Under the pieces are notes generated by a model, which was not told the DNA's origin, ran no database searches, and worked only from the letters and a program-made list of their open reading frames with translations. A stretch of DNA of 23,224 nt, taken from NCBI GenBank assembly GCA_010015805.1, contig ML978137.1, forward strand, positions 558,001 to 581,224, written 5' to 3'. This document shows, in pieces, positions 9,429 to 22,387 of this stretch (the first letter of the stretch is position 1; each line of letters starts with the position of its first letter). Position numbers and translations under genes: made by a program. The stretch comes from Rhizodiscina lignyota. Its lineage: Eukaryota.

Positions 9429-11504
9429 ATGTCGATTGCGAAGCCGAAACGCAGACTCCCAGTCCAGCAGCTGACAATTCTGGGTATGGCGCACCCCGCA
9501 GTCTGCGAATTCACAGCTGCACCATTCATCAAGGTGGACAATTGCTAACAGCCTCGCCATACAGCAATATGTCGTTTCGCCGAGCCCATCTCCCTCACCT
9601 CCATCTTCCCTTACCTCCCCGAAATGATCGAATCTTTCGGCGTCGCGAAAGATGATATCGCCTTCTGGGCCGGCCTGGCTTCTGCCATCTACTCCTTCTC
9701 GCAATGCTTGACTGCCATCTCCTGGGGACGACTCTCTGACCGCTTCGGCCGCAAGCCCATTATACTAACATGTCTCGCCAACACCATGATCACGAGTTTA
9801 TTGTGGGGATTCAGCACGAATTTACCTATGGCGCTGGCCGCGCGAGCGCTGATGGGTGCTGCGAACGGTAATGTGGGCATCATTCGCACAATGGTGGCGG
9901 AGATGTGTCCGTGGAAAGAGCTGCAGCCCCGGGCATTTAGTATCATGCCACTTATATACAACATTGGGAGCGTGGTGGGGCCGTCAATTGGTGGTGCGCT
10001 GGCAAACCCATACCACAGGCTACCGAACGAGCCTCCTACATCACAACTGTTGGATCGGTTCCCATATGCTGCGCCCAACTTGGTTGCTGCGGGCTTCTTT
10101 CTCGTTGGACTGACAACGGGAATATTGTTCCTGAAAGAGACGCTGGCTACGAGGAAAGACCAGCCTGATTATGGGATCATACTGGGAAAGAAGATTAAGA
10201 AGGGTGTGCGAACAGTGTGGTGGAAGGCGAAGCTCGCGTGGCTGGAAGGTCGAGGACAGGAGACGGAGCCACTCCTCAAATCGCGCGCAGAGATGTCAAG
10301 ATCCGCGCTCCTCGACGAAGAGAGTGGCCCAAAGAAGCCTCCAGGCAAAACTCTACCTCCGCCCAGCATGCGAGAAGTCCTCCACCCACAATCCATCCTG
10401 AATCTGATTGCCTACACGATGCTCGCAATGCATTCTATTGGCTATGATCAACTCATTCCCGTGCTTCTGCATCATCCGAAGCAGGATCTCAACGATCCTG
10501 ATGTCCACCTCCCTTTCAAATTTGGGAGCGGGTTCTCCGCCACCACTGCAGAAATTGGCGTAATGTTCACACTGTACGGTTTCATGAACATTATATTCCA
10601 GCTCGTCCTCTTCCCACCAATCGCCCAGAAATATGGTGTATTGCACTGTCTGCACGTCTGTGTCATCGCCTATCCAATTATCTTCTTCCTCACGCCGTTC
10701 CCCGTGCTGCTCCCCGGCTTCTCAAGAATCGTCGTCCTCTTCTTACTTTGGCTATGTAAAGGCTTGGCAGGTTCCTTCGCGTTTCCCTGCTCCACAATCC
10801 TCCTCACCAACTCTGCACCCTCGCTACGCATTCTTGGCACATTAAATGGAATGGCGACTGCCATCTCCGCAGTCGGTCGCGCTGCTGGACCAACGATCGG
10901 TGGTAATGCTTTCACGTTAGGCGTCAAGCACGGTTATATCATCTTCCCGTTCTGGCTTCTCGGAGCCATCGCTGCTATCTCCGCAATTCCGGCCTTCTTT
11001 CTGATTGAAGGTGAAGGCTTTGGAGGAGACGAGTCGCCGCTTGATGAGTCTGACGCCGAAGACGACGAAGAAGAAGAAGAAGAGGATGATCTTGAAGAGA
11101 GCGTGCCACGTCCGATTTATGAAGATGGCATGGCGACTCCTGAGCAAGTCGAGTCTCGCGCAGAAAGCGAGTACGGTGGGCTTGGTAGGATGATAAGCTC
11201 GACGCCTCCCCGTGACTTACACAGGACGTGGAGCGTCGTGTCAAGTTCTGTCGCCGAGAGCATGGACGGGGATGAAGAAGCCATGTATGAGAGGCAGCCG
11301 CATGGCTATGGTGCCGTGGAGGGGGCGAGCGATCAGCCACATGAACAGAGGCCATCATTATCGAGACGGGGTAGTAGAAGGCTCAGGAGAAAGAGTAGTG
11401 CACCGCTGGGCCTTGGATCTGGGTTTAGGAGGATGAGCACAAATTTAGGACAGACCAGGAGCGGCTTTGGAGATGGTGGTTCGTTTGCTGGTGGCGTGCA
11501 GTAG
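9429..11504 (+). CDS. Major facilitator superfamily transporter (Ycr023c/ZIFL-like), ~664 aa, long acidic/disordered C-terminal tail; exons 9429-9483, 9565-11504
   Basis: N-terminus LPVQQLTILAICRFAEPISLTSIFPYLPEMI after removal of intron 9484-9564 (GTATGG..GCTAAC..CAG). MFS motif A WGRLSDRFGRKP; GNVGIIRTMVAE, QPRAFSIMPL, GPSIGG; about 12 hydrophobic segments. Confidence 0.93.
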
Positions 11505-13694: not shown

Positions 13695-14575
13695 ATGGGA
13701 AAGAGAACCGGACCAGTCGCCCCAGGCGTTGCCTTCGTCACAGGCGGAGCAAGAGGTCTTGGAAACGCAATCGCTGTGTCATTTGCAAGAGAAGGTGCAC
13801 GAGGCATTGTGATCGTCGACGTTAATAATGAAGAAACGATGAAAGAGGGGGTAAAGGCGATCGAGGGACAAGGAACCGAGTGCCTGGCCATCAGGGCGGA
13901 TGTCACCAAGGAAGAGGAGATTGAAAGAGCGGTGGCACAGGCAGTGGAGAGATTCGGACGTATAGATTATGCTGCGAATTTCGCAGGTATATTAGGCCCG
14001 GGCCAGCGTGTCGCAGACTCGGATTATTCGCAATGGCAGAAGACTATGAGCGTAAACTGTGACGGGGTGATGCTCTCTATGAAGTATGAGATGCGGCAAA
14101 TGATGAAACAAAGCTCGATTGAAGTCGAGGAAGGAAGAGTGCCGCAGCAGGGGAGTATTGTCAATGCCGCGAGTGTGAATTCGTTACTATCCACGCATGG
14201 GACAGTCGCATATACTGCAGCGAAGCATGCTGTAGGCGGGATGACAAAGACGGCGGCGCTGGAAGGGAGACAGCATAATATCCGTGTGAACGCGGTCTCA
14301 CCAGGTTTTCTTCCGACAAAGTTGCTCGATCCAGTGATAAATCGTCCCGGCGGTGCGGAACGTTGGGCAAAGTTCGAAGCTCGACAGGGCCGTGCTGTGA
14401 CAGGTTTCGATGAAGTTGGGGATGTCGTTGTCTTGCTGTCGACTCCAAGGATGAGCCTAGTTAATGGGCAAAACCTCTCTATTGACAAGTGAGTGTCTGA
14501 CGGCTTCCCATTCAAAAGCCCCGAACTGACGAACGAAATAGCGGTTATGTCATTAACGAGGGAGTTGATTGGTGA
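13695..14575 (+). CDS. Classical short-chain dehydrogenase/reductase (probably NAD(H)-preferring), ~275 aa; exons 13695-14488, 14542-14575
   Basis: TGGARGLG, acidic residue ending beta-2 (IVIVD), GRIDYAANFAG, NAAS, YTAAK and IRVNAVSPG. Intron GTGAGT..CTGAC..TAG restores the ending IDNGYVINEGVDW*. TATATA at ~13593. Confidence 0.94.
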
Positions 14576-14698: not shown

Positions 14699-16002
14699 CT
14701 ATTTCCGAGGCGACACTAGTATCTTCACCTGGCCTTCCTTGTTGTTGATGAGCTCCTCGATTCCCCTTCCCACTACATCCTGAAGCGGAATCCTGCTCGT
14801 AATCATATTTTCAACGCCTTTGAATTTACCTGAGATAGAAGGTCAGTCAAAGTTCAGCAGCTAATGTACGCATTCATTACCCTCGCAGAATGCCGCAACC
14901 GTTTCGCGAAAGTCATCATCGTTGTAAGCCAGAGAGGCTCTAATTGTGAGCTCCTTGATCATGAAAAGGCCGAAATGAGGCGTAAACTTGAAACAAATTA
15001 GCCATTCACACCTTGTTTCCTATCGTGAATTTCAAGGCTCACAGGAGTCTCCCATCCCGCAACGTTCATATACGTCCCTTTCATTCGTAGAGACATCATA
15101 CCATCCATCATAGCAGGTGTGACGCCAGCGCAGTCGAAAACAACGTCAATTCCCTTCCCTTCAGTCAACTCCATGCATTTTTCAACTACTTTCTGGGTCT
15201 TTGGATCGATCACAACATCGGCAATTTTCTCCGTCTGCGCTCTGCGCTGCACTGTAGGCTCCGAGACATATATCTTCTTAGCACCGTTTGCTCTTAAGAC
15301 GTGGATCATGGCAATGCCAATCGGTCCGCCTCCGAGGATCAGGATGCTCTTGTCCGGAATGTTGGTCATCTCAGCACCTCTCATGCCATGCCATGCAACT
15401 GCGAGCGGTTCGACTACCGCTGCGGTCTCCAGCAAAGAATCATTTGGTAGCGTATACAACATGCGCTCATCCACGGCGACGAGTGAAGAAAGACCTCCGC
15501 CTCCGCCACCTGAGAGTCCAAGGAAACCATATCTTGCGCAGCCGTTCGTGTCGCGAGTGGTGGTGCAGACGTGACAAGAGCGGCAGTACAACCGTGGGTC
15601 TGCAACTACTGGCTGTCCTGGCTGTAGTTTTGAGCCTGATGGGACCTTTAAAACCGTGCCGCAAAATTCATGGCCCATAGTAACTGGCGGCGTGGATTTG
15701 GTAAGGGGGTGCGGTGCGTCAGCACGCGGGATGGCTATCGGGCCTGTCATCTTTTATTTAGCAATGGCTCGAAATTATTCCACAGGAGACAGCAGTGGTC
15801 ATCAGTCGAGAATGAAGAATAGAAATAAATCGATATTAAACCAATTGAGCAACATTGGCATACCGGTGAGGTACTCGTGGAGATCGCTTCCGCAAATCCC
15901 GCACCATTCGACTTCAACGAGGACTTCGTTTTCTCCGGGCACTGGTTCCGGGACATCCTCGATACGAATATCTTTCCGGCCATACCATCGTGCGGCTTTC
16001 AT
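14699..16002 (-). CDS. Zinc-dependent medium-chain dehydrogenase, (2R,3R)-butanediol dehydrogenase (Bdh1)-like, ~358 aa; exons 16002-15864, 15743-15043, 14986-14881, 14829-14699
   Basis: MKAARWYGRKDIRIEDV, WCGICGSDLHEY, PHPLT...GHEF, structural Zn site CRSCHVC...C, VEPLAVAWH, GGGPIG, DVVFDCAG, C-terminal VKILVSP. Three GT..AG introns. Total 1077 nt, in frame. Confidence 0.92.
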
Positions 16003-17218
16003 TTTCGAAGTAGCTGGCGTTAAGCTCTGCACGTGCAACGATAGGGGATGCCCAATAGGACACTAGAAGCGTCCACGGAACGGGTCCAATTGGTGGCGCT
16101 CTTTTAACTCTTAGGAGCGAATAGGTCTGAAACTGGAGATTGTTAGTTGGTGAGAACAGATCGCTCTCTCAGGGCCGCTTAGATAATTTATAGCCTGAAG
16201 GTGGATGTGTTTACGTGGAAGCTGAGAGTGAGACACCACCCCGCATCATCTCCCGCTTGGCCGATGCTTGAAGGCTTTGGTACCCAGGAGCTTGCGGCTT
16301 ACGGAAGACTTACAGCTCACACTTATAACCTTGAAGTAGCCTCACCCAGCTTAGCAATTACCCCTTCGGACCATTTAGAAATCTTACACGAGAGAGCCAG
16401 ATTCTTGTGAGCGAACGAACGTCCCAGGGACCAGCCGGCTTGAACCTCCAATAAAGCACCATGGGGCACCCAGAAATAGGTAAGGCTCACCCAGACGGGA
16501 ATGTGGTTAGCCATTTCGTCACGACTGGCAGAAAAACCCCTTTGGACGTGTCCGTCGCATCGCATCATCCATTCACGTTTTCCTCATCAACTTCCATACC
16601 GTACATTCGGGGGCCTCAACCATGTTCGAAGGATTTCGGGGCGCAGCGTATCACTGAATTGGGCATAGGATTGGATCGCCGAGGTGGACATCAAGCCCGT
16701 GACATAGGCTATCGACCTTTTACTTAATGCATGCGACCCGAGAAGATGTTTGTAAGGCGCAAAACAGAGGGAAACTTTCGACGAGATTTGAACGGTGCAC
16801 TAGAGATTATCCGGAGAGACGGACAAAGGTGGCTAGCAAACTTGGTGGCATGCCGCATTTGAATTCAGATCGCCAGGGGCGATACTCTAAACTTGAAGTA
16901 GGTGTTGTAAGCTACGACTCCGATGATCCTGCTCTATTTGAGAGACCTTCTTGACTCAAATCTCTACCTAGAAAGACGTAGTAAGAATAGTCAAATATAT
17001 GTTGAAAGAAAGATGGCAGAAAATCCGTCGCCGTCCAACCAGTATACAACCGAAATGGTGTCTATCTCTCGGACATGGTCTTTTAAACCTCTTAAGAAAA
17101 CACCAGATGTATCGGGCATCTTACCATCATGTCATCATTCCACGCATGTAAAGACCACTGTCGATCAGTATCCACGTCCATCCATCTGCCATGTAACTCA
17201 AGGGAGTCAAGCATGGCA

Positions 17219-18839
17219 TCAGCGCTTGAACTTCTTCAGCTCGAGCCAGCGAAGGGGAGGGAAGACTAAGGCTGCCCAAGCAAACCCGACATAGTTGCCC
17301 ATCTGTACGATTATCAGCTCGAGCACATCGCAGTGATTGTAGGAGACTTACATCAGCGCCGTAATCGCCCACCGGGGCGGCCAGAGGGCCAATATACCAC
17401 AATTGAGCCATGGACAAAATCGCACCTGCCCATCCGACCAGGAACGCAAGCAGTGCCGCATAACCATGGGGGAGCTTGTCTTTCTCGTTCCACGCCGTCC
17501 AGTCGAAGCCGCGATCATTATCAGGGGTCTTCATTTTCGGCCGGAAGAGAAACTCTTCTTCAAGGGATATCGCAATCCAAATGACCACCCAATATCCCAT
17601 GAGCGCCAGGAAATTGGTGAAGATCTCAGCGAGATGATCGCGGCCGGCAAGGGCGCAAACCGTGAAAATGACGATTCCGAGGGTATTCCAGATTGGGCGC
17701 GGGACCTTTTCGAACCAACGTCCGAGGATCTGGAAGTCAAGGCCGGAGGAATATGCAGGAGGAACGAGATTCGCGACTAGGCCGAGGGCGACCATAACGC
17801 TGCAGATCGAGCCGAATGTGCCTAGAGGGCGATAGGCTTCAACGATGAGTGCACCTTGGGAGGAATTGTATGCGTCAGACCATGCCGTGTTAGTTGGAAT
17901 CGCTGAAGCGAGGCCAATGCCGAGGATGAACATGAACGTAAACGAGAGTGCAAGTCCGGCATTGGTCACGGCAAAGACTTTCCAACCCGCAGTATGCTCC
18001 GGGTAGTAGACGAAAAAGTCTGCGCCTGCACCCGAATACGTGATAGCCGCGGCGAGACAGAGCGAGAAGAACGACAGGCGATTGCCAACAATCGTCCTCG
18101 CGTCGCCTTGAGATTCACTCGACAAGTCGAACTTTGGGCCTGCGACACCGGCAAGGACGCAAAGAACAATCAATTGCGGAAGCCATGCATATCGCTCGTA
18201 ATAGTGGAAGATGCGGTATCCGAATGTCGAGATCGTCCAAGTGATAAGTGAGGTCACTATTATGCCGACGACAAGCGAGAGCGAGTTGTGAGGCGAGACG
18301 GCCGATAACATTTGGCCCGCGATGACCACGTCAATGAGCGAGTAGCCCAGCATCACGACAATGTTCAGCAGCACGATCAGTTTCACAGGCCACCAGCCCA
18401 TAGTGTAACGAGCCACAATGAGGGTCCGATTGCCAGAGCGCGGCCCAAACATGGCCTGATACCCAACTGCAAGGTTTCCGACAAGCTGGCCGAAGAAGGC
18501 GAGTAACGTGGCATCCAGGAACCCGAGTTCGAAGACGACGGGTCCGAGCATTCCCAGTGTAATGTTGTTTGCAGCTAAATTCATTGAGAACCACACAATG
18601 CCGACTTGAGTAAATCCGAGAGTTTGGAGGCTGTGGCGCTCGTGCGCCTCCACTCGCTGGATACCACGAGCCTCGAGCTTCCATGAGACCAAGTAGGCCG
18701 AAGTTGCACGATAAATTTTCTTCCACTTGGGCGGCGACGATTCGGTTGTGCCAGTAGTCGAATGAGTCTCAGTTGGGCTTGGAGCAAGCGGGTTGCCTTT
18801 CTCGACATCTTCAACGAGGCCGAGGGGGAACAGCTCCAT
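17219..18839 (-). CDS. NCS1 purine-cytosine permease family transporter (Fcy2/Tpn1-like), ~523 aa, probably thiamine-related substrate; exons 18839-17352, 17302-17219
   Basis: LEARGIQRV, WFSMNL, FGPRSG.R....RYTMGWW, FHYYERYAWLPQ, ADFFVYYP, NFLALMGYW, QLWYIGPLA. Intron 17351-17303 (GTAAGT..CTGAT..CAG) restores GADMGNYVGF...PPLRWLELKKFKR*. The substrate is inferred from the upstream TPP riboswitch. Confidence 0.93.
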
Positions 18840-18845
18840 ATTCGC

Positions 18846-19139
18846 CTGCGTTAGTTAGAAATATGAGCTGGGGGTGGATGTGGAGAAGAGAAAGAGCATG
18901 ATGCTTTCGCTGGAGTTATCCAGATCAAGTTCAACCGTATGATCTCAGAACGTTGACACCGCAGGTGTCGTGGTTGGTGACTAGAGTACTCCGTAACCGG
19001 CGCAAGCCGCGAGTAACAGCCAAATGCCACGACAGTGCAATTTGCCAACGGACACCGGTTCATGCAGCTTCCTCTGTTAAGGTACCTTGATCCAGCAACT
19101 TCACTCTGCTGTTCGGCTCTTTTCCGGAATGCTCCATAC
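18846..19139 (-). promoter_or_regulatory. Riboswitch-containing 5'-UTR intron with two alternative 5' splice sites (distal GTATGG at 19139, proximal GTACCT at 19085) and a common acceptor (CAG ending 18846)
   Basis: Branch CTAACTAAC 18858-18850 and CAG 6 nt before the permease ATG. A uATG at 19137 lies between the two donors. Confidence 0.75.
18896..19065 (-). promoter_or_regulatory. TPP (thiamine pyrophosphate, THI-box) riboswitch aptamer with extended P3
   Basis: Minus strand: P1 GCATGA (19065-60) / TCATGC (18901-896); P2 ACCG / CGGT; GGTG; P3 CGTTGGCA (19050-43) / TGTCAACG (18958-51); CTGAGA (18948-43); ATAC; AACTTGATCTGGATAACTCCAGCGAAAG (P4/P5). All core TPP consensus elements are present in order. 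Confidence 0.96.
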
Positions 19140-21012
19140 TTGAAAAATGAGTCTGAGGGAATCGACTTAATTCGCGAAGCGGGAGATTTGGTCACTATGA
19201 GACCTGATATAGTGGTAAGAGATCTGGGTCACAGTATACTGTTATGGAAGCTCTATTGGAATTCTGATAAAGATGCAGTCAAAATAGTTGAAGCTCTTGA
19301 CAGAGGGGATGCGGTCCTCTTTTGATGCCCAATTCTTTTGCTTTTGCCGGGAAAAATTTCCTCGTTCTCGGCACGACGTGCCGAGTGTACCGTCTTAGCC
19401 TTTCCTTCATTTGGACCTCACCAGCCGCTCCACACTTTTTCAATGGGCTCCAGATCAAGTGGACTTTTCTTCCTTAATCTCAAAAATAAATTGCTGTATA
19501 TAGCAGCTGGACTGAAGATGGTACCTTGCGAAGCTCGAAACACGGCCGCACGTGGCTCACGTAATACGTCATAGCTGCAAACCTTCCGACAGCTCCAACC
19601 TGGCTCCAACCATGGAACAGCTTGAGCACGGCTTCACCTGGCGGTTACCTAAACGTGACCTCGAAAGCGGCGAAAAGTTGCTCGAAATTTTCCATTGTGG
19701 TCAAATGACGCTTCCATTCCAATTCAGTTGCGCTTTACATCGGTGAGATTCACAGAGGCAGCGCTTATTCCCGACTTCAGCTCGTGTACGGATTTTCCGA
19801 GGTTCAACCAGAGGGGAGAAGCAGATCTTTTGTACTGCGTGTGACCTTGGATTTGCCTTGCCCGAGTGTGATGCCCGCCAATAACGGCCTTTGTATCACG
19901 ATGAAGAGGAAAGCGGTAAGGCGATCTTCTAGAAGGCCGAGTGGAAGCATGGGCAAAGGCTTAGCTGATCAACGCAAACATCGTCCGTTTCGTTAGGTAC
20001 TTTTCATGTCAGGCGCCGCTCTAGGGTTAAAGTAAAACTGGTGCAATGAGATGGCTCGGCCTTGGGTCCGGCAACGGATGGGTGCGTTGGAAATTCCAGA
20101 ACATACACAATTTACCAAGTCGGGAATTCATGAGCTTCTTCCTCCGCCTCTTGCGCCGTCAGCGTGGGCCTGCGGCTCGCGAAGAAGTTCAATGACATTG
20201 TTGGTACGCGCTATGAATACACACAACTTGCATGTCAGCACAGCTCGGTTGGACGCCTGCAGCGCAACAGCTTCAAATGGCACGCACAAACAACGGGAGG
20301 CCACGAGACAGTTGTTTTCCCCGCAAACTTGACGGCACACCAAGTCTCCAGATTCAAGTCACATTTCGCTTGATTCTGCGAAGATCGCAAAACTTGATGA
20401 TCCACGGGCCCAAAGAGGGAGCTTGCCCGTTATCCCCACACGCGGCGTCCACTCGCCTTACAGCCCGTGGCTGGCGCCCCTGTTCAGCCTTCCGTGAGCA
20501 GCATCATCGCTGTCTCGACGCAGCCAATTGTAAGCTCGTACCTGAGTGGGCCCTGCATTTGAAACATCGTCGGTGCGATGCGGCCGAGGACGAGAGCTCC
20601 CCCAAACAGAAGGGAGTGGCGCGCATCGTGAGCACATCCGTCACTGCGCTGGCGTGCAACCGGGGCCACCCGCCAGCCACCACCACCACCGCACCACCCA
20701 CCGCGCTCTGCGTGACTCAAGTCATGCTGTTGTTGTGCGCGGGGTTAGGCAGAATGAGGGAAAAGTCAGATCTTCGGCAGATCAGTGACGATGCCACCTG
20801 CTCGTCACTTTTCTAGCTCCGCTCCTTGGGCTGGACCTTATAACGCGCTCGAGTCCCACTTTTAGAGTATTTACTGTCTATCATTCCGCTCTATTTCAGC
20901 TGCTCATCCTCACCCAATTCTTCCTCCCGACTTGAATGGCCCTTCGCTTCTGCGTCGACGTAGCATTGGCACATTCGAAGTCCAAACACTTACACCGCTA
21001 GCTCCACCCACC

Positions 21013-22387
21013 ATGTTCTCACGCATCACTTCAATTGCTATCTCCACGCTTGCGCTGCTTGCTACAGTGGGCAATGCAGCTCCTGCAACAATGTGCGACC
21101 CTCCCAGTGACCTTTTGAAGCTGTTCGAAGCTCTTGCTGACCGTGCGCAGAACGCAGTACAAGCGTGACGACACTCTCAAGTTTGACTACAATAGCGACA
21201 AGGTTCGCGGCGTCAACTTGGGTGGCTGGTTCGTGCTGGAGCCGTGGATTACGCCATCCATTTTTGAAGAATGGGCAACGAGCCAGACAGTAAAGGACGA
21301 GTATACGTTCTGCCAGACCCTCGGCAAGACCGAGGCCAAGAAGCGCCTGGAAGCGCATTGGGACAGCTGGATCACAGAAGCCGACTTCGCTGCTATCAAA
21401 GGCGCCGGTCTTAACCACGTTCGAATTCCAATTGGCTACTGGAGTATTTATCCCAGATCCGGAGACCCATATGTTCAGGGCGCATATAATTACCTAGCCA
21501 AGGCGCTCGACTGGGCGCAAAGCAATGGGTTGAAGGTGATGATCGATCTTCATGGAGCGGCAGGATCTCAAAACGGATTCGATAACAGTGGTCGGTACGG
21601 TCCAATCGACTGGACGCAAGGTGACACAGTCGACCAGACCAAGGATGCGCTCAACAGGATCCGCGATGACCACGCCTCTCATCCTGCTGTGGCTGCGATT
21701 GAGCTGCTGAATGAGCCGATGGGCTCTGCGCTTAATATGGACACCGTTAAGCAGTTCTACATGGACGGTTGGGGCAACCTGAAGGTCTCGCACGTCGCCA
21801 TTACCATTCATGACGCATTCCAGGGCGTCACAAACTGGAACGATTTCGGCAGCGGCATGTGGAATCTTATTATCGATACCCATCATTACGAAATCTTTGA
21901 TGACGGCTCAGTCGCAATGGGTATCGACGACCACATCAGCACCGCTTGCGACTTTGGCAACCAGATGGCCAGCAATAACAAGTGGACCATCAGCGGTGAA
22001 TGGACCGGTGCCATGACCGACTGTGCGAAGTGGCTTAACGGCCTTGGAAAGGGTGCTCGCTATGATGGTACCCTGAATGGCGAAACGCCCTCTGGAAACT
22101 GCGACGGCAAATACACAGGTACCGTCTCTGGACTCGGTGCCGCAGACAAGGCCAACATCCGCAAGTTCATTGAAGCGCAGCTCGATGCGTTCGAGAAGGC
22201 CGAGGGCTGGATCTTCTGGTGCTGGAAGACGGAATCGGCGCCCGAGTGGCACATGAAGGACCTTCTCGCAGGTGGTCTCTTCCCTCAGCCAATTACTGAC
22301 AGGAAATGTAAGTGTCACATACCAACTCGAACCTCTTGTCGCAGTCATGCTAACAACTCAATTTTAGATCCCGGCCAATGCGGCTGA
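21013..22387 (+). CDS. EXG1: Secreted GH5 exo-1,3-beta-glucanase (glucan 1,3-beta-glucosidase), ~418 aa; exons 21013-21092, 21151-22307, 22368-22387
   Basis: ACC-ATG, signal peptide and KR (Kex2-like) site. KVRGVNLGGWFVLEPWITPSIF, NHVRIPIGYW, IDLHGAAGSQNGFDNSG, acid/base NEP, nucleophile GEW, GWIFWCWKTE, C-terminal YPGQCG after splicing. TATAA at ~20839. Confidence 0.95.

Follow-up and report, generated by a model that had tools for sequence, protein, structure and literature searches.

Described Fungal TPP Riboswitches and the R. lignyota Locus

Riboswitches that sense thiamine pyrophosphate (TPP) and direct the choice between alternative 5' splice sites are described both for fungal genes of biosynthetic enzymes and for fungal transporter genes. 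The present work concerns a locus of the latter kind, located in a stretch of 23,224 bp from Rhizodiscina lignyota (GenBank assembly GCA_010015805.1, contig ML978137.1, positions 558,001–581,224 of the forward strand), which is called the window below. All coordinates are those of the window and, unless another strand is given, refer to its minus strand. An aptamer (18896–19065) was found there immediately upstream of a gene encoding a permease of the NCS1 family, and we consider it probable that this is a TPP riboswitch placed in an intron of the 5' untranslated region (UTR) of an Fcy/Tpn1-like NCS1 permease gene, where it apparently acts as an OFF switch of the NMT1 type. A switch of this type had been proposed in a previous sequence-only reading of the same DNA, and the comparative sequence data argue for it: the aptamer was detected in 59 of the 80 loci that encode orthologues, the best complement to the P4/P5 strand adjoins a GT in 21 of 28 representatives, and a uORF (upstream open reading frame) that overlaps the main ATG is kept in 28 of 35.

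The primary description of the Neurospora crassa NMT1 riboswitch is reportedly that of Cheah et al. 2007. According to the available text of Li & Breaker 2013 (PMC3597705), nucleotides of P4/P5 block a 5' splice site of NMT1 and THI4 in the absence of TPP, and the product formed when TPP is abundant carries uORFs that prevent the main ORF from being expressed. The window locus appears to share with these two genes an aptamer in a 5'-UTR intron, two candidate alternative 5' splice sites with one acceptor, complementarity of P4/P5 to the region of the proximal donor, and a predicted TPP-state product with a uORF. It differs from them in that the gene encodes a transporter and not a biosynthetic enzyme and in that the upstream ATG (uATG) is located inside the distal donor (GT-ATG-G). 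In addition, the uORF runs across the main ATG in another frame, whereas in NMT1 and THI4 it ends upstream of the main ATG; in the window, this arrangement is known from sequence alone.

The NCU01977/DUR31 type, or 'Type II', is represented in the available part of PMC5882874 by an internal intron of 650–900 nt in a gene of the urea/SSS family, with pairing over a distance of ~500 nt. The window locus resembles this type, as it is presented in the available text of PMC3597705 and PMC5997356, in being a fungal transporter gene with a TPP riboswitch and an alternative choice of the 5' splice site. However, the predicted window intron is only 240–294 nt long and belongs to the 5' UTR; ~20 nt separate the masking sequence from P1, and the gene is a member of NCS1. 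The short 5'-UTR intron, the short masking distance and the gene family all agree with the preference of the sequence-only reading for an NMT1-type over an NCU01977-type mechanism.

Riboswitches in 'nucleoside transporter' genes of Pezizomycotina were found to be the most similar to the one considered here. Part 1 of 4 of Data S1 of Mukherjee et al. 2018 (PMC5882874) contains 22 riboswitch-bearing genes with this name, and 17 of the 22 are assigned to Type I, the NMT1-like type, which combines two donors and a uORF with an intron in the 5' UTR. The 22 rows comprise 13 for Dothideomycetes (9 of Type I, 3 of Type III and 1 of Type IV) and 9 for Aspergillus (8 of Type I and 1 of Type III). In the available text of Donovan et al. 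2018 (PMC5997356), Tpn1/Fcy21-like predicted nucleoside transporters are reported for Aspergillus nidulans (AN4526.2), Stagonospora nodorum and Xylona heveae, and further genes of this kind are credited to Moldovan et al. 2018. The Aspergillus oryzae copy, 'TPPsw-NUC', was modelled in silico (PMC8786325, available part), and the available text of an iScience paper from 2025 (PMC12329505) mentions riboswitches in general terms only. Judging by protein names and sizes, the window gene belongs to the same family; as in those genes, the aptamer is located tens of nucleotides upstream of the coding sequence (CDS), and the predicted mode is Type I. Several of the permease matches come from species that are present in the table of Mukherjee et al., including Bipolaris maydis, Verruconis gallopava and Aureobasidium, this being a comparison at the level of species. 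R. lignyota itself is absent from part 1 of 4 of Data S1, and the P3 insert of the window copy differs from those of the listed genes in being apparently long enough to push the score below the Rfam cut-off.

The locus is therefore another case of a published class and does not change what is known of the riboswitch mechanism. The claim of the sequence-only reading that a readable mechanism stands out in this gene family does not find support, since the class is already in print (PMC5882874 and PMC5997356, in their available parts). The test of donor masking and uORF geometry over 37 representatives, given below, may go beyond the published papers, with the reservation that the helix may already be drawn there.

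Identification of the TPP Aptamer

The CUGAGA motif and the motifs of the P4/P5 sensor arm are parts of a TPP aptamer that contact the ligand. Both were found in the window, namely CTGAGA (CUGAGA of J3/2 in the RNA) at 18948–18943 and CTTGATCTGGATAACTCCAGCG at 18929–18908. The latter follows the sensor-arm pattern ...UGAUCUGGAUAA..CCAGCG..., with the 5' strand of P4/P5 at 18929–18920 and CCAGCG at 18913–18908. The contacts of these motifs with TPP are also given in the available part of PMC5882874. A covariance model was built from 28 orthologous aptamers, with the window excluded, and its search of the whole 23-kb window gave a single match. The match is on the minus strand at 18896–19065, covers the full length of the model (positions 1–116) and has a score of 83.8 bits (E 1.3e-19) with intact core motifs. 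It returned exactly the coordinates at which the sequence-only reading had placed a full TPP aptamer. P1 of this aptamer is formed by 19065–19060 with 18901–18896, and the minimum free energy (MFE) fold of 19070–18890 contained P1 (GCAUGA with UCAUGC) and a long P3.

The Rfam model of the family gave a less uniform result. A scan at the gathering threshold revealed no matches within the 23-kb window. In the E-value mode, the RF00059 search suggested by the sequence-only reading did yield a local match with an E-value of 1.7e-4, but its 32.4 bits were below the gathering cut-off of 54.3. The alignment covers 18971–18884; it skips the ~95-nt P3 insert, and its P2/P3 is a false one made up of sequence at the distant end of this insert. 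The miss is apparently due to the long P3 insert together with the family-specific CUU/AAG P4. Note that the gathering cut-off is an operational threshold and not a structural feature, and the sub-threshold score does not look like a sign of a false aptamer. Taken together with the unusually long P3, the position of the window below the cut-off could still be expected of a decaying or non-functional relic of an aptamer with splice-like motifs occurring near it by chance. Such a relic is highly improbable in view of the full-length match to the orthologue model with its core motifs intact. Moreover, P3 ranges from ~86 to 170 nt in length across orthologues in which all other features are preserved.

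In order to place the aptamer in its family, a profile of 25 orthologous permeases was used, which led to 80 metagenomic loci encoding orthologues. The orthologue covariance model found an aptamer in 59 of these 80 loci; in each of them it directly precedes the permease match on the coding strand. Less than 200 nt of upstream DNA is available for 12 of the 21 negative loci, which leaves 59 positives among 68 assessable loci. No aptamer match was found in the other nine loci (L037, L040, L043, L046, L047, L057, L069, L076 and L080), where the upstream DNA was adequate (at least 765 nt). These nine encode permease relatives with 55–63% identity; they may be paralogues, or their lineages may have lost the riboswitch. 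The RF00059 gathering cut-off was passed by 4 of 20 submitted loci from the set of 80, with full-length matches of 54.9–56.4 bits, and all four have a short P3.

The alignment of orthologous aptamers comprised 28 of the 31 representatives other than the window, because L004, L011 and L048 are near-duplicates of L002, L010 and L014 and were omitted. Using RNAalifold, only P2 and P5 were recovered from this alignment, and the P1–P5 structure was then supplied by hand; with this structure, 94.9% of the cells in the 28 aptamers were paired, compared with 88.2% after shuffling (0 of 500 shuffles attained the observed value) and 28–42% with slid partners. Compensatory changes were revealed in P2 (AU 18, GC 7, GU 3), in P5 (AU 14, UA 14) and at the base of P3. 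The pairing and the covariation thus support the P1–P5 three-way-junction architecture of a TPP aptamer.

Splice Signals and uORF of the Leader

The distal 5' splice site, GTATGG (19134–19139), contains the uATG at 19137–19135, and splicing at 19139 would therefore remove it. The proximal 5' splice site, AAG/GTACCT (19080–19085; the slash marks the exon–intron boundary), is weak and has no G at position +5. The segment between the donors (19086–19137) corresponds to the first 52 nt of the uORF and would be kept only if the proximal donor is used. Two overlapping CTAAC branch-point motifs were found at 18850–18858, followed by the shared 3' splice site CAG at 18846–18848; exon 2 would begin at 18845, and the main ATG is at 18839, 6 nt into this exon. 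The predicted lengths of the intron are 240 nt from the proximal donor and 294 nt from the distal one. Joining 19086 to 18845 gives a 28-codon uORF, MEHSGKEPNSRVKLLDQGEYGAVPPRPR followed by a stop, whose frame differs from that of the main ATG. Its exon-2 part (18811–18845) crosses the main ATG and ends with TGA at 18813–18811. Recomputation on the minus strand confirmed every position that the sequence-only reading had assigned to this region (donors at 19139 and 19085, uATG at 19137, acceptor at 18846) and reproduced exactly its 28-codon uORF crossing the permease ATG.

The donor, branch and acceptor signals flanking the aptamer, and their conservation, suggest that it is placed in a 5'-UTR intron. 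Upstream of the distal donor there is a putative first 5'-UTR exon (19140–19409), a stretch of 270 nt that contains no ATG and fits such an exon; going upstream from 19139, the first ATGs are met at 19410, 19572, 19613 and 19695. The ATG at 19410 opens a 43-codon ORF ending at 19279, and a TATATA motif is located near 19497. If transcription started upstream of 19410, the ORF at 19410–19279 would be a constitutive uORF of the first exon.

What follows is a model: it predicts where transcription starts, which splice sites are used, that TPP is bound and in which direction the gene is regulated. Without TPP, the 13 nt located 5' of the weak proximal donor (19098–19086) would form a helix with the aptamer's P4/P5 arm and hide this donor. 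The stronger distal donor at 19139 would then be used, the 294-nt intron would leave together with the uATG, and the clean leader would allow the permease to be translated. With TPP, the ligand would be enclosed by P4/P5 and P1, and this would free the proximal donor; splicing from 19085 would keep the uATG, and the 28-codon uORF, overlapping the permease ATG, would block translation of the permease.

Conservation of the Two-Donor Design

The 59 aptamer-positive loci and the window were clustered into 37 non-redundant representatives (36 groups without the window). In 24 of the 37, the motif ATCA[AG]G/GT was found no more than 75 nt to the 5' side of the aptamer, and in the remaining 13 a donor of the NAG/GTA type was recognized by eye at the same place. 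A splice-site heuristic was applied to 35 of the 37 representatives, with L067 and L077 excluded. All 35 contain a proximal [AG]G/GT[AG] donor motif, and none has a G at +5 of this donor. In 31 of the 35, a uATG whose frame crosses the junction was found no more than 90 nt from the proximal donor, at a distance of 30–62 nt in the relatives and of 52 nt in the window. In 28 of the 35, the junction-crossing uORF is read in another frame than the main ORF and stops beyond the main ATG, so that an overlapping uORF would be present in the product of the proximal donor, with a predicted effect on translation.

Among the 31 representatives with a junction-crossing uORF, a GTA[CT]G donor is located just 5' of the uATG or overlaps it in 24. 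The search pattern for the distal donor itself includes the +5 G, and the contrast between a weak and a strong donor is therefore only half independent. A CT[AG]A[CT] motif shortly before the acceptor is present in 35 of 35, this motif having also been used to call the acceptor. Donor motifs for both sites are thus present and positionally conserved (24/31 distal and 35/35 proximal), as judged from the nucleotide sequences. Distal donors of the form GTATG[AGC], in which the ATG is embedded, were found in the window and in L023, L049 and L061, and the other distal donors have the form GTACG[AGC]. The embedded uATG, shared with these three loci, is one of the minor features of the window copy, along with its long P3 and the predicted bipartite register of masking.

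These counts bear on a simpler scheme with a single regulated donor. If transcription started downstream of 19139, or if GTATGG were not used, then only the 240-nt intron would be gated, and TPP would either turn the gene ON or affect retention alone. The scheme is compatible with the fact that the masking helix would control the proximal donor only, and both the use of the distal donor and a start upstream of 19139 are themselves predicted. However, the conserved GTA[CT]G with its uATG (24/31) and the out-of-frame overlapping uORF (28/35) would then be purposeless, and the 270-nt ATG-free stretch upstream of 19139 also speaks against it. In addition, an importer turned ON by TPP would be contrary to the OFF logic of the validated fungal TPP riboswitches (PMC3597705, available text). 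We therefore regard a single-donor switch as unlikely.

Predicted Masking of the Proximal Donor

Complementarity and the MFE fold pointed to an anti-P4/P5 masking sequence, UUGCUGGAUCAAG (19086–19098), which is flush with the proximal donor. The sequence-only reading had proposed that its last 10 nt, CTGGATCAAG (19095–19086), pair with CTTGATCTGG (18929–18920) through 8 Watson–Crick and 2 G-U pairs. This pairing was confirmed: of the 189 ten-mers within the 200 nt that precede the window aptamer, 19095–19086 alone can pair with this strand at 10 of 10 positions. The MFE fold of 19112–18890 agreed with the proposal in part. It contains the pairing of 19090–19086 with 18925–18929, but in place of one continuous register it prefers a split one, in which 19098–19091 pair with 18907–18914, that is, with the 3' strand of P5 plus CG. 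P4/P5 is unzipped in both registers. The predicted energy of this masked MFE conformer is -75.4 kcal/mol, compared with -73.9 kcal/mol when the continuous 10-bp helix is enforced and -70.1 kcal/mol for the aptamer conformer with P1, P2, P4 and P5 enforced. A gap of ~5 kcal/mol between two conformers could plausibly be bridged by ligand binding. In the predicted ensemble, 19096–19086 are paired to the 3' domain of the aptamer with a probability of 0.52–1.0. The models thus show P4/P5 as complementary to the region of the proximal donor, in a pairing that would be exclusive with the ligand-bound fold.

Analysis using RNAduplex, in which the 50 nt upstream of the aptamer were compared with its 3' domain, gave -24.7 kcal/mol for the window (z -2.27, a value reached by 3 of 200 shuffles) and a mean z of -2.38 over the 37 representatives. 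The position of the complement was evaluated in the 28 representatives with the canonical CTTG.TC.GG strand, taking the best ten-mer within 200 nt upstream. The best complement to the locus's own P4/P5 strand adjoins a GT in 21 of the 28, while only 5.3% of the ten-mer positions adjoin a GT.

The 5' extension of the masking sequence follows the flip of P5 only partly: GAUCAAG is preceded by CC[CU] where the aptamer reads ...AGG, and by CUG, CUA, CAG or CCG where it reads ...UGG. In some loci (L024, L032 and L033; L067; the group of L002, L010 and L014), the apparent complement of the proximal-donor region is J2-4 or the 3' strand of P2 and not the 5' strand of P4/P5, as with GUUCGAGGUAUCA and UGAUACGGCUUGAAC in L032 or AGUUCAAGUC and GGCUUGAACU in L067. 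The aptamers of the L002/L010/L014 group contain an extra CCUUGA in J2-4, which, on our reading, could pair with UCAAG/G. Lineages of this one gene may have come to use different masking partners.

A second long-range pairing, between AGTAGCAG, which occurs in the uORFs of many relatives, and CTGCTACT at the branch sites, was considered and rejected as a general feature. RNAduplex comparison of the inter-donor segment with the region from the aptamer to the acceptor gave a mean z of -0.03, with only 2 of 37 representatives below -2, and no such pairing was found in the window. The conserved AGCAG seems to be better explained as a second anti-sequence against the 3' strand of P5 (CCUGC or CCAGC), a pairing that appears both in the RNAduplex results for the region upstream of the aptamer and in the MFE fold.

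The chance level of pairing with the branch region is of importance for another explanation, according to which the aptamer is functional and its main output is TPP-dependent intron retention, occlusion of the branch site or acceptor, or nonsense-mediated decay of the long isoform. The unspliced RNA would carry the uATG and further ATGs within the aptamer, so that retention would be equally non-productive, and 4 of 35 relatives have no junction-crossing uORF, which is in line with an output of this kind. Two results speak against it: pairing of the inter-donor segment with the branch region did not exceed chance, and the overlapping out-of-frame uORF is kept in most of the relatives. A main output other than translational blockade by the uORF is accordingly given a low probability.

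In the frame of the uORF, the pattern ...S-S-R...(3–4 codons)...D-Q-G at the junction was observed in the window (19137–19086), in L007, L018, L025, L026, L049, L053 and L071 and in others, and the distance from the uATG to the donor is 1 mod 3 in 25 of 31. Since the masking sequence reads GAU-CAA-G, with AGCAG as a match to the 3' strand of P5, the conservation of the peptide is probably a by-product of constraints on the RNA, a role of the peptide itself being less probable.

Evidence Weighing against the NMT1-Type Model

A number of observations weigh against an NMT1-type OFF switch or reduce the force of the comparative data, beginning with the fact that the window does not reach the Rfam cut-off. 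In the predicted ensemble, the GU of the proximal donor (19085–19084) is mostly unpaired to the aptamer (p 0.17–0.21). The low pairing of the GU and the high pairing of the exon flank imply that the exon side (-1 to -11), and not the donor GU itself, would be masked. The 7-bp core of the masking helix (GAUCAAG with CUUGAUC) is nearly invariant and so says little for or against the pairing. Furthermore, L002, L010, L014 and their near-duplicates have CTTGCTC in the aptamer and keep GATCAAG, which results in an uncompensated internal mismatch. The design of the uORF is not universal either: the four representatives without a junction-crossing uORF are L006, L008, L035 and L058, the uORF stopping just before the donor in L006 and L058, and in L032, L033 and L038 it ends before the main ATG. 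Finally, the 37 representatives are related to each other, and therefore none of the counts is a number of independent events.

Permease Gene and Its Neighbourhood

The ORF downstream of the aptamer encodes a permease of the NCS1 family, as indicated by a match to PF02133 (53.3 bits, gathering score 23.5, residues 78–433). The protein is 100% identical to a 523-aa NCBI protein named 'putative nucleoside transporter [Rhizodiscina lignyota]'. Its CDS (17219–18839) consists of two exons, 18839–17352 and 17302–17219, separated by a 49-nt intron (17351–17303) with the consensus GTAAGT...CAG in the gene model. The general NCS1 model of NCBIfam, TIGR00800, gave 146 bits (E 1.3e-42), which is below its bacterial cut-off of 353. 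The similarity to TIGR02358 (CytX, a putative transporter of hydroxymethylpyrimidine (HMP)) was weak, and this match, with 21.8 bits against a cut-off of 309.85, was rejected as evidence of orthology. A sequence search of the PDB with the permease revealed no solved relative at E <= 0.01. The names given to the orthologues by their sources include 'purine-cytosine permease FCY21' and 'Vitamin B6 transporter'. The placement of the protein in an Fcy2/Tpn1-like subfamily is putative, being taken from these names and from the description by Donovan et al.

Four neighbouring ORFs were assigned by family matches, namely an MFS transporter (MFS_1; 9624–11504, plus strand), a short-chain dehydrogenase (SDR; 13695–14492, plus strand), a zinc-type alcohol dehydrogenase (ADH; 14998–16038, minus strand) and a GH5 cellulase (21134–22387, plus strand). 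None of the four matches suggests thiamine metabolism.

Possible Substrate and Significance

The plant NCS1 protein PLUTO is cited as an HMP transporter in the available part of PMC7200797. The window permease has in common with it, and with bacterial CytX (TIGR02358), that an NCS1-superfamily permease is linked to thiamine metabolism, and this link hints that the substrate is thiamine or its pyrimidine precursor. By analogy, our guess is that the permease may transport thiamine or a precursor such as HMP. A literature search revealed no work in which splicing or the substrate had been tested experimentally for the riboswitch-marked NCS1 clade.

A wider proposal, combining several of these features, is put forward tentatively, and we think it somewhat doubtful as a whole. 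In this proposal, the inter-donor GAUCAAG would have a triple role, as the flank of the donor, as the strand that unzips P4/P5 and as the D-Q-G codons. The masking partner would have drifted by lineage between the 5' strand of P4/P5, the 3' strand of P5 and J2-4 or the 3' strand of P2, and the clade would be the main HMP salvage permease of filamentous ascomycetes. If this were true, the clade would represent a natural series for the evolution of riboswitch expression platforms.

For a gene that is otherwise labelled 'FCY21' or 'vitamin B6 transporter', the riboswitch is the strongest functional clue. The window presents a clean eukaryotic riboswitch expression platform in which all signals can be read in the sequence, and the 59 loci in 36 non-redundant groups indicate that the design with two donors, a masked flank and an overlapping uORF is conserved across this transporter family. 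The natural variants in the set of 59 loci could be used for testing the control of splicing by TPP riboswitches.

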